NCBI RefSeq assembly: GCF_003334785.1
Contig: NZ_QOWV01000002.1
Direction: 5' to 3' (one strand)
Origin: Escherichia coli
GTDB lineage: Bacteria; Pseudomonadota; Gammaproteobacteria; Enterobacterales; Enterobacteriaceae
DNA: 64,000 bases
The notes under the pieces are model-generated. The model saw only the letters and a program-made list of their open reading frames with translations. It made no database searches and was not told the DNA's origin. Below, in pieces: positions 63,300 to 63,839 of this stretch; the stretch's first letter is position 1, and every line of letters begins with the position of its first letter. The position numbers were made by a program, and so were the translations under genes.

Positions 63300-63839
63300 T
63301 TAATTAAACCAGCTGTCCGATTTGTTCTCTTCTGCTTTGCCCACGCTTTTCATCAGATCGCGACCGCCTTCAGTCATATTTCTGTTGGCGTCAGCTTCAG
63401 ATTGCACCACATCGGTTTGCGCAGCTTTGTGCTTCAGTTCCTGATCGATAAATTCGTTTTCTCGCTTAACGCGGGCTTCTTCTTTCGCCAGCGCCAGTTT
63501 TTGTTTCTGAATCTCTAAGCTGCGTAGCTCATCTTCATAACTTTGATCGCGTTTTTTGTCCGCAGAGGCTTCGGCGTCCAGTTTATCCTGACGAGCTTTC
63601 TTATTTGCCGCTGCCGTTGCCGCTCTTTTGTTAGCGGCGGCCTGGGCATTTGCGCGACGTTGCTTCTCTTGCTGGATTTCCCTGTTGCGCTCCGCGACCC
63701 ATTCGTCATGCTGCCTTTGCTCTTCATTTTTACCTTGCTGTTCCGCTTCTGCGACAGCAGAGAGTTGATCCTGCAATGATGAGGCGATAGCCGGATAGCT
63801 TAAGGAGGCTAAGATGGCGCAAAGAAAAACTTTCTTCAT
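63300..63839 (-). CDS. yfgI: Secreted, highly charged coiled-coil protein YfgI
   Basis: 179-aa ORF (-) with signal peptide and K/E/A/Q-rich low-complexity helix. Confidence 0.85.
   Translation of the reverse strand: MKKVFLCAILASLSYPAIASSLQDQLSAVAEAEQQGKNEEQRQHDEWVAERNREIQQEKQRRANAQAAANKRAATAAANKKARQDKLDAEASADKKRDQSYEDELRSLEIQKQKLALAKEEARVKRENEFIDQELKHKAAQTDVVQSEADANRNMTEGGRDLMKSVGKAEENKSDSWFN

Follow-up and report, generated by a model that had tools for sequence, protein, structure and literature searches.

SlyB is a PhoPQ-regulated glycine-zipper lipoprotein of the outer membrane, where it forms rings around outer-membrane proteins and lipid nanodomains (PDB 7OJF/7OJG). Its sequence and fold homolog in Escherichia coli, YfgH, is encoded directly upstream of yfgI, a gene at the far end of the 64,000-nucleotide stretch of E. 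coli DNA analyzed here (the window; contig NZ_QOWV01000002.1). YfgI itself is not a SlyB homolog and matches no solved structure. We find that yfgI is paired with yfgH across the Proteobacteria and on phages and plasmids, and that its product is predicted to be a single long periplasmic helix with conserved modules at both ends. The explanation toward which we lean, with modest confidence, is that YfgI is a periplasmic rod partner of YfgH that acts in outer-membrane barrier function or in exclusion, and that would brace, tether, or organize YfgH assemblies. From this comparison we infer a lipoprotein system of the SlyB type to which a periplasmic rod has been added.

Published work on the pair centers on YfgH. 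The gene was tied to lptD and to outer-membrane integrity by Babu et al. (2011, PMC3219608), and a December 2025 preprint (bioRxiv 10.64898/2025.12.22.696046) places YfgH in the outer membrane, assigns it a SlyB-like role in stabilizing that membrane when lipopolysaccharide (LPS) or outer-membrane-protein assembly is under stress, and reports its induction upon knock-down of LpxC, LptD, or BamA and its co-purification with BamA, LptD, and porins. The yfgH mutant described there is sensitive to sodium dodecyl sulfate with ethylenediaminetetraacetic acid (SDS/EDTA) and shows uptake of N-phenyl-1-naphthylamine (NPN), and clsA mutations act as suppressors of the deletion. In phage-receptor and Dub-seq papers, yfgH comes up solely in lists or as an artifact attributed to the neighboring yfgG. 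In Salmonella Typhi, the yfgHI orthologs srgIL are induced by SdiA and acyl-homoserine lactone (AHL) (Schwieters and Ahmer 2024, PMC11619404). YfgI has been detected as an entry in an E. coli K-12 proteome table (PMC9508795), and sensitivity of its deletion mutant to nalidixic acid is the sole published phenotype (PMC3536626); an earlier sequence-only reading of this DNA was thus right to leave the function as not established. We found no paper on its Pfam family, DUF5384, in the literature searched.

The yfgI gene and its immediate upstream signals occupy the following positions in the window:

63300..63839, minus strand: yfgI coding sequence, 179 codons plus a TAA stop (63300-63302); from the open reading frame (ORF) list, Pfam PF17358, and E. 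coli annotation.
63844..63849, minus strand: yfgI Shine-Dalgarno sequence AGGAGG, inside the 15-nt gap behind the yfgH stop; from the sequence.
63855..64000, minus strand: 3′ end of yfgH, with its TAA stop at 63855-63857, running past the end of the window; encodes a SlyB-like glycine-zipper outer-membrane lipoprotein; from annotation, phmmer, and Foldseek.

The start of yfgI therefore lies 15 nt beyond the yfgH stop, with its own AGGAGG in the gap, an arrangement that went unnoticed in the sequence-only reading. This pairing is the strongest clue to YfgI function. A scan of one genome per species with an 11-sequence alignment located the YfgI family at 70 genome loci, and phmmer searches with E. 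coli YfgH alone detected a YfgH-like gene directly upstream, on the same strand, at 68 of them. The remaining two have less than 190 nt of upstream DNA; hence all 68 informative loci are paired. These span alpha-, beta-, and gammaproteobacteria, and the two genes mostly overlap or are separated by 3-15 nt. Four loci from metagenomes are organized in this way as well, and Pseudomonas alkylphenolica carries two tandem copies of the entire pair (L038:1772-2883 and L038:3420-4531), with a small lipoprotein-like ORF between the copies. The association also extends to mobile elements: in tblastn searches, relatives of YfgI turned up in 200 plasmid records and 13 phage records; those of YfgH turned up in 201 plasmid records, with an identical organism breakdown, and the phage records were the same 13. 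These matching counts indicate that the two genes co-occur on mobile elements in both directions. Given strict operon pairing that is kept on phages and plasmids, the best-supported assignment is that YfgI would be the exported, rod-shaped second subunit, or at least an obligate functional companion, of the YfgH lipoprotein.

Resemblance to known outer-membrane lipoproteins resides entirely in YfgH. It alone has the features of the SlyB/glycine-zipper 2TM lipoprotein family, of which YfgI is not a member; phmmer matches YfgH to 7OJF at E 4e-10, and Foldseek matches the YfgH part of our model to 7ojf_A at E 6e-9 with a TM score of 0.69. YfgH is also distantly similar to TraT of the F plasmid, an outer-membrane lipoprotein ring, but this similarity is weak (phmmer E 0.013; rank 2 in Foldseek; weak Pfam TraT matches) and does not extend to YfgI. 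All complete YfgH-type partners have a lipobox and about 151 mature residues, the one sequence without a lipobox being cut by a contig end. The YfgH-type proteins share a conserved pair of Cys residues and an invariant ETRIQPN..CP motif at the C terminus, and they are always accompanied by YfgI; SlyB, in the phmmer alignment, lacks the first of these Cys residues and stops short of the second.

The same features could suit a different relationship, in which YfgI is a periplasmic assembly factor or brake that binds YfgH transiently, for example at its hydrophobic glycine-zipper hairpin or its ring-forming domain, and either delays oligomerization until stress or aids insertion. Strict pairing and tight spacing are compatible with such a role, and the ETRIQPN..CP motif and Cys pair, which partner-less SlyB lacks, could be a docking site. 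We nonetheless think it unlikely that YfgI works in this way, given that plasmid-borne YfgH complements alone and reaches the outer membrane, that a rigid 23-nm rod with phase-locked ends (see below) would be an odd shape for a chaperone, and that YfgI has no hydrophobic face with which to shield a transmembrane hairpin.

Our annotation of YfgI itself divides the protein into an export signal and a tripartite mature region:

63783..63839, minus strand: signal peptide, residues 1-19 (MKKVFLCAILASLSYPAIA), with predicted signal peptidase I (SPase I) cleavage after A19 and no lipobox; from inspection, hydropathy, and homolog N-termini.
63720..63782, minus strand: conserved N motif, residues 20-40 (SSLQDQLSAVAEAEQQGKNEE); from alignments and the conservation profile.
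63552..63719, minus strand: variable helical spacer, residues 41-96, rich in Ala, Arg, Gln, Glu, and Lys; from identity, the length lattice, and Ala periodicity.
63594..63653, minus strand: Ala-rich tract within the spacer, residues 63-82 (ANAQAAANKRAATAAANKKA); from an alignment of E. coli length variants.
63303..63551, minus strand: C-terminal module of about 80 residues, 97-179 (RDQSYEDELRSLEIQKQKLALAKEEARVKRENEFIDQELK..AAQTDVVQSEADANRN.TEGGRDLMKSVGKAEE...WFN); from alignments and the conservation profile.

The N terminus, MKKVFLCAILASLSYPAIA followed by SS, reads as MKK, VFLCAILASLS, and YPAIA before the SS: the n-region is positively charged, the hydrophobic core spans about 11 residues, and A-x-A precedes residue 20. 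By inspection it thus has what a Sec/SPase I signal peptide requires, namely an n-region, an h-region, and small residues at -3 and -1. Most of the 70 homologs from other genomes have comparable N termini, again by inspection, and the homolog in phage P7 has an annotated sig_peptide. The signal peptide proposed in the sequence-only reading is accordingly borne out at the level of sequence, and YfgI is predicted to reach the periplasm by Sec export, without lipidation. A search for the lipobox [LVI][ASTVI][GAS]C with a conserved Cys found none in YfgI; its only Cys, C7 (VFLC), lies within the h-region with Leu at -1 and is not conserved in alignments of the homologs. We therefore reject the description of YfgI as a lipoprotein in the SdiA review, where srgIL/yfgHI are called "two small lipoproteins"; the LAGC lipobox belongs to YfgH.

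YfgI relatives form a family that is small, yet reaches beyond the Enterobacteriaceae. A word-indexed search of 5.8 billion proteins returned 258 relatives, and an exhaustive search of 1.84 billion cluster representatives returned 252 at E <= 1e-3 and 190 at E <= 1e-10. The 70 genome loci come from Enterobacterales, many Pseudomonas, Pasteurellaceae, Vibrionaceae, Shewanella, Tolumonas, and Zobellella, and from betaproteobacterial and alphaproteobacterial lineages. Residues 33-178 of YfgI match Pfam PF17358 (DUF5384) over all of its 145 model positions (1-145; E 9.1e-62), and phrog_1094 of the PHROG collection matches positions 1-179 of 179 (E 3.5e-104). NCBIfam holds no YfgI model and returned only sub-threshold compositional matches to TolA and MutL. 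The MutL match and a Pfam GAGA_bind match (E 6.4) were set aside.

Family alignments resolve mature YfgI into a conserved N motif, a variable spacer, and a conserved C module. In distant members, identity to E. coli YfgI is 0.39 in the N motif, falls to 0.24 in the spacer, and rises to 0.52 in the C module. The N motif has the family consensus S-L-x-D-Q-I/L-x-A-V-x-x-A-E. In the C module, nearly invariant positions include D103, R106, R126, L135, A140, T142, D143, S147, A149, D150, R153, G158, and G167, and polar residues (D103, R106, R126, T142, D143, S147, D150, and R153) are among the best conserved. This conservation of polar residues at both ends argues for specific binding surfaces rather than a featureless spacer. 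In one family member (P0220) and in the YfgI homologs of three further loci (L057, L062, and L063), the end of the C module (N-x-S-E-G-x-K-x-x-L-x-S-x-G-K-A) is present two to four times, and its repetition suggests a modular binding unit. A more divergent architecture is seen in the protein P0237 (L080:1050-2737), in which the DUF5384 C module follows a long, unrelated helical region that resembles a coiled coil. Its neighbors look phage-like, and its true N terminus may lie in an upstream ORF (1050-1376) that has a signal peptide and would have been split off by a frameshift.

The spacer gives YfgI its distinctive composition. Across the family it contains 28% Ala, 14% Arg, 13% Gln, 12.5% Glu, and 10.5% Lys, with almost no Pro or Gly. 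Mature E. coli YfgI (160 amino acids [aa], 18.2 kDa, isoelectric point 5.6) contains 16.2% Ala, 13.1% Glu, 10.6% Gln, and 10.6% Lys, and 39% of its residues are charged, so that "K/E/A/Q-rich" and highly charged, as it had been described, are accurate terms. Its description as repetitive and of low complexity applies only to residues ~50-90, where sequence entropy drops to 2.6-2.9 bits from the 3.3-3.8 bits found elsewhere; the ends are of normal complexity and conserved. Tandem Repeats Finder (TRF) detected no tandem repeat in yfgI DNA, and we rejected DNA repeats of that kind as the source of the repetitive appearance.

Structure prediction extends this picture. From a 99-sequence alignment, AlphaFold2 (AF2) models one unbroken helix over residues 16-174, with a mean predicted local distance difference test (pLDDT) score of 90.3, and residues 22-150 of the family contain 0.05% Pro and 0.83% Gly. 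Mature YfgI is accordingly modeled as one continuous rigid helix of about 155 residues, predicted to measure ~23 nm at 0.15 nm per residue. A Foldseek search of the PDB with this single-helix model returned nothing, and a profile search of PDB sequences gave insignificant matches only.

The model, which is rod-like, agrees with the helical character that had been attributed to YfgI from its sequence, but the accompanying idea of a periplasmic coiled-coil spacer was not supported. No segment of E. coli YfgI has significant heptad (3.5-residue) hydrophobic periodicity, and the only signal in the 3.3-3.8 band is a weak one at 3.7 for residues 136-179 (24 of 500 shuffles). Family-wide periodicity falls instead at 3.6-3.67 residues per turn, and Ala recurs in the spacer with a period of 3.6 residues across the family (z 7.6). 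The resulting helix bears an Ala stripe and no hydrophobic face. The opposite-charge pairs at i,i+3 and i,i+4 that mark ER/K single alpha-helices number 30, versus 24.4 +/- 4.0 in shuffles (z 1.4, not significant).

Lengths of the spacer mainly follow a rule. We defined spacer length as the number of residues between anchors Q25 and Y101 and measured it in 99 family representatives. The values (number of representatives in parentheses) were 53 (4), 60 (1), 64 (33), 71 (12), 72 (3), 75 (22), 79 (1), 81 (1), 82 (13), 86 (4), 93 (4), and 97 (1). Two interleaved series with an 11-residue step and a mutual offset of 7 (equivalently 4) describe these lengths, and 94 of the 99 representatives fall on the resulting lattice of 53, 60, 64, 71, 75, 82, 86, 93, and 97. 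A second, independent alignment of 69 genome-derived sequences gave lengths of 46, 53, 64, 71, 72, 75, 82, and 86. In a Rayleigh test that counted each distinct length class as one observation and scanned periods from 3.0 to 4.5, R reached 0.88 at 3.66 residues per turn, versus 0.46 (P 0.09) at 3.5; with the same scan applied, 3000 random length sets all fell short of 0.88. Among the off-lattice values, length 81 comes from a garbled sequence, and length 79 from a protein in which the anchor motif is duplicated internally (P0180); a second such duplication, in P0265, has the on-lattice length of 97. Some members have overt 11-residue repeats, such as the AAAAAKKEAEA units of P0212.

We read the spacer as a rigid, continuous helix that tolerates insertions mainly when these keep the N motif facing the same way as the C module. 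Preservation of phase further argues that the two ends of YfgI act within one assembly. Quantized lengths of this type fit a rigid rod and not a classic heptad coiled coil; straight helices and bundles of the hendecad type behave in this manner. Steps of 7 and 11 and a period of 3.66 are what YfgI shares with hendecad (11/3) helices, which form straight or right-handed coiled coils and include helices of the apolipoprotein, late embryogenesis abundant (LEA), and synuclein types. It differs from them in having no hydrophobic face, so that binding to a lipid surface is not indicated, and searches of Pfam and of PDB sequences found no sequence homology to any of these families.

These data also bear on the view of YfgI implicit in the sequence-only reading: a free-standing periplasmic coiled-coil spacer, comparable to Lpp or TolA domain II, that has no specific partner and only sets a distance. 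Lpp and TolA domain II are likewise long, Pro-free periplasmic helices, rich in Ala and charge, whose length matters, and YfgI shares with them a long predicted helix and a constraint on length in place of sequence. The compositional resemblance to TolA (TIGR02794), located in the domain II region, reaches just 10.4 bits (E 0.27) where the cut-off is 59.45, and we rejected TolA as a relative. YfgI differs from both proteins in having no lipid anchor, transmembrane segment, or heptad periodicity, and in possessing conserved end modules and an obligate lipoprotein partner. The motifs at its two ends are largely polar, yfgI essentially never occurs without yfgH, and the rod varies in length by taxon (spacers of 46 to 97 residues), leaving no universal distance to be set. 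We consider a partner-less spacer improbable.

Two conserved ends held in register on a stiff helix would suit a strut, tether, or organizer beneath an outer-membrane ring. In the mechanism that we propose for the YfgH-YfgI partnership, the two proteins are synthesized together, YfgH being an outer-membrane lipoprotein of the SlyB glycine-zipper family; one of the conserved ends of YfgI would dock on the periplasmic face of YfgH; and the rod would project into the periplasm, where it may brace, tether, or organize YfgH assemblies. Loss of YfgI would then weaken the lipid barrier of the outer membrane and cause hypersensitivity to nalidixic acid, a hydrophobic quinolone, and not to ampicillin or kasugamycin. 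We infer here the contact with YfgH, the assignment of binding partners to the two ends, the oligomeric state, and the permeability account of the phenotype.

Hydrophobic quinolones cross the outer membrane via its lipid phase, and defects in the outer-membrane lipid barrier sensitize cells to them. In published tests, survival of the yfgI deletion strain was 7% with nalidixic acid, compared with 98% with kasugamycin and 74% with ampicillin (Skunca et al. 2013, PMC3536626). Sensitivity to nalidixic acid is probably a permeability effect, and it parallels the YfgH phenotypes. Skunca and colleagues predicted a Gene Ontology (GO) role in the DNA damage response, which is the source of the database name "nalidixic acid resistance protein" (PMC3536626). 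In favor of such a role, the deletion strain survives poorly on nalidixic acid and near-normally on two other antibiotics. Yet a single-drug test cannot separate drug uptake from DNA repair, and the signal peptide predicts that YfgI leaves the cytoplasm. Pfam returns DUF5384 and no DNA-repair domain, the partner is an outer-membrane lipoprotein, and in Salmonella no SdiA-dependent shift in sensitivity to nalidixic acid or ultraviolet (UV) light was seen, though srgIL is SdiA-regulated (PMC11619404). We regard a direct function in DNA damage as very improbable.

Several observations weigh against the partnership, or against the rod as we describe it. Complementation of the yfgH deletion requires only YfgH, whose over-expression alone also rescues the stress phenotypes, and YfgI is nowhere mentioned in that preprint, including in its text on pull-down bands of ~17 kDa (bioRxiv 10.64898/2025.12.22.696046); YfgH is evidently active without extra YfgI. 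Modeling offers little help with a direct contact: an AF2 model of YfgH fused to YfgI through a (GGGGS)6 linker, built from a 42-pair alignment, has a pLDDT of only 71.7, and confidence in the C module of YfgI falls from ~84-95 to ~50-58. The C module occurs in the 409-aa P0237 with no YfgH gene on its 3.5-kb contig, the one exception to the pairing that we encountered. The length rule has its own exceptions. Length 72, one residue off the lattice, characterizes a Pseudomonas-type subfamily whose divergent N motif leaves the anchor without strict equivalence. Minority E. coli alleles of 177, 175, 173, 172, and 170 aa have in-frame deletions of 2, 4, 6, 7, or 9 residues in the Ala tract, and most of these (2, 4, 6, and 9) are off-phase and break the 7/11 rule that holds between species. 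An 8-nt direct repeat, TTGCCGCT, is present in the tract at 63605-63612 and 63617-63624, spaced 12 nt apart, and slippage at it could drive the 4-residue deletion.

Also on this side of the balance is an E. coli O145 lineage in which yfgH is intact and yfgI is frameshifted by a 7-nt deletion (GGATCAA) after codon 22. Alignment of L077:1455-1620 to positions 63700-63870 (minus strand) of the window places the deletion at ~63768-63774, where it splits the signal peptide from the remainder of the protein; gene callers choose an alternative start (MRHLSLLKLSGYRLIIA...) for this allele. The possibility that it is a common allele of enterohemorrhagic E. coli was rejected, the frameshift being rare (~29-33 of 5416 complete genomes) and one listed O157:H7 genome carrying intact yfgI. 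The O145-lineage strains with the frameshift are natural yfgI knock-outs.

Two of the 13 phage records with the pair are of TL-2011b with host flank, in which yfgG, yfgH, and yfgI lie beside prophage lysis genes at one end of the record, in agreement with a reported prophage insertion between yfgI and guaA (PMC10050402). The other 11 belong to P7 and P1-like phage-plasmids. In these, the product of upf50.5 shares 69% identity with YfgH and that of upf50.0 shares 47% with YfgI, and the P7-type pair (L082:4476-5540) is flanked by c4/icd on one side and by the late promoter LPsit and pmgC/tubA on the other. In canonical P1 the same slot holds the simABC "superimmunity" genes (L085:10787-12001). 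On small mobilizable ColRNAI plasmids of 3.9 to 7.5 kb, the pair is the main cargo. It adjoins a divergent phosphoethanolamine-transferase gene on a 7.5-kb E. coli plasmid (L083:3593-6967) and, on a 3.9-kb plasmid of Salmonella Cerro (L086:400-2379), a 241-aa ORF that has a signal peptide and, by eye only, resembles a carbonic anhydrase. The plasmid-borne transferase is CptA/EptB-like and scores below all MCR cut-offs. RefSeq phage records call the YfgH-like lipoprotein a "DNA methyltransferase" (P7 upf50.5, L082:4476-4997; L087:2355-2870). This looks like a propagated annotation error, since the GenBank originals read "putative outer membrane lipoprotein."

The principal alternative to the barrier partnership, and one that overlaps with it in keeping the same two partners for another purpose, is that YfgH and YfgI form a mobile cassette for surface or superinfection exclusion, akin to TraT or Sim, of which the chromosomal copy has been domesticated. 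An outer-membrane lipoprotein ring with a periplasmic rod would here impede incoming phage or conjugative DNA, or blunt attacks by complement or colicins. Carriage by P7 and P1-like phage-plasmids in the slot of P1 simABC, the status of the pair as main cargo of small ColRNAI plasmids, the weak similarity of YfgH to TraT, and the patchy distribution of the family across Proteobacteria are all consistent with exclusion, as is control of srgIL by SdiA and AHL, that is, induction when other bacteria are present (PMC11619404). The Sim comparison has clear limits. P1 SimC has a hydrophobic, signal-like N terminus in the hhalign alignment, but that program assigned a probability of only 10% to homology with YfgI, with only the signal peptides aligned; we rejected SimC as a YfgI homolog, and a shared position does not amount to a shared function. 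SimC is an exported periplasmic protein. None of the PADLOC-DB 2.0 defense models matched YfgI or YfgH at E <= 0.1, the published YfgH phenotypes concern envelope stress under phage-free conditions, and we found no exclusion assay in the literature searched. We view an exclusion function as possible, though distinctly less probable than a role in the barrier. A broader formulation, which we offer just as tentatively, is of a mobile two-protein envelope device in which a phase-locked rod of ~20 nm would help to block incoming DNA or attack on the outer membrane, the chromosomal copy having been domesticated for protection against envelope stress.

The remaining features of the locus concern the gene and its surroundings. 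The ORF that had been reported at 63300..63839 is real: it starts with ATG, encodes 179 aa on the minus strand, and is E. coli yfgI, and the peptide quoted for it is found there verbatim. Of 5426 complete E. coli genomes, more than 5400 match the 801 bases around yfgI, and there the gene is annotated as yfgI, "DUF5384 family protein," between guaA and yfgH. On its other side, yfgI is convergent with guaA (61630-63207, plus strand, stop 63205-63207), which follows guaB (to 61561). The guaA-yfgI intergenic region (63208-63299) is an insertion site, occupied by IS1 in several E. coli genomes. It contains one further feature:

63232..63259, no strand assigned: guaA/yfgI intergenic hairpin with a 12-bp stem; from folding and a terminator scan.

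The sequence-only reading had proposed a bidirectional terminator shared by the two genes. The hairpin is real and folds on both strands (folding z -3.8 on the plus strand and -4.3 on the minus strand), but a terminator consensus scan accepted it on the plus strand only. On that strand TTTTTTATCTTC follows the stem, giving a terminator-like structure with a clean T-run that the minus strand lacks. The minus-strand tail after the hairpin would be TTTTGTTCATTC (UUUUGUUCAUUC as RNA) if the A-U/A-T pairs at the base of the stem open. Bidirectional action is plausible. An Rfam scan found no family at the yfgI locus. Elsewhere in the window, at 2916-3063, 31735-31806, 32523-32632, 40007-40650, and 53479-53570, it gave matches above the gathering threshold to GlmY, naRNA4, an iscRS element, ryfA, IS128, and sroE, known E. 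coli RNAs that are unrelated to yfgI.

The yfgI gene and its Pfam family were already known. Relative to the literature searched, the pairing of YfgH and YfgI across Proteobacteria and mobile elements, the single-helix tripartite architecture, the length rule, and the replacement of sim by the pair in P7-type phages appear to be new. Two labels in use can also be corrected: "nalidixic acid resistance / DNA damage response" probably describes a permeability effect, and YfgI is not a lipoprotein.

YfgH was recently proposed as an outer-membrane stabilizer distinct from SlyB, in work that is silent on the adjacent downstream yfgI. If YfgI is an obligate partner, models of outer-membrane protection by glycine-zipper rings are incomplete for this branch, and knock-out and over-expression work must treat the pair as a unit. 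The helix-phase length rule provides a simple genetic handle on whether a rigid periplasmic rod is functionally required. Finally, that P1-like phage-plasmids and small mobilizable plasmids carry the pair, in one case beside a phosphoethanolamine-transferase gene, suggests a transferable trait of envelope hardening or exclusion, which would bear on antibiotic permeability and on phage therapy.

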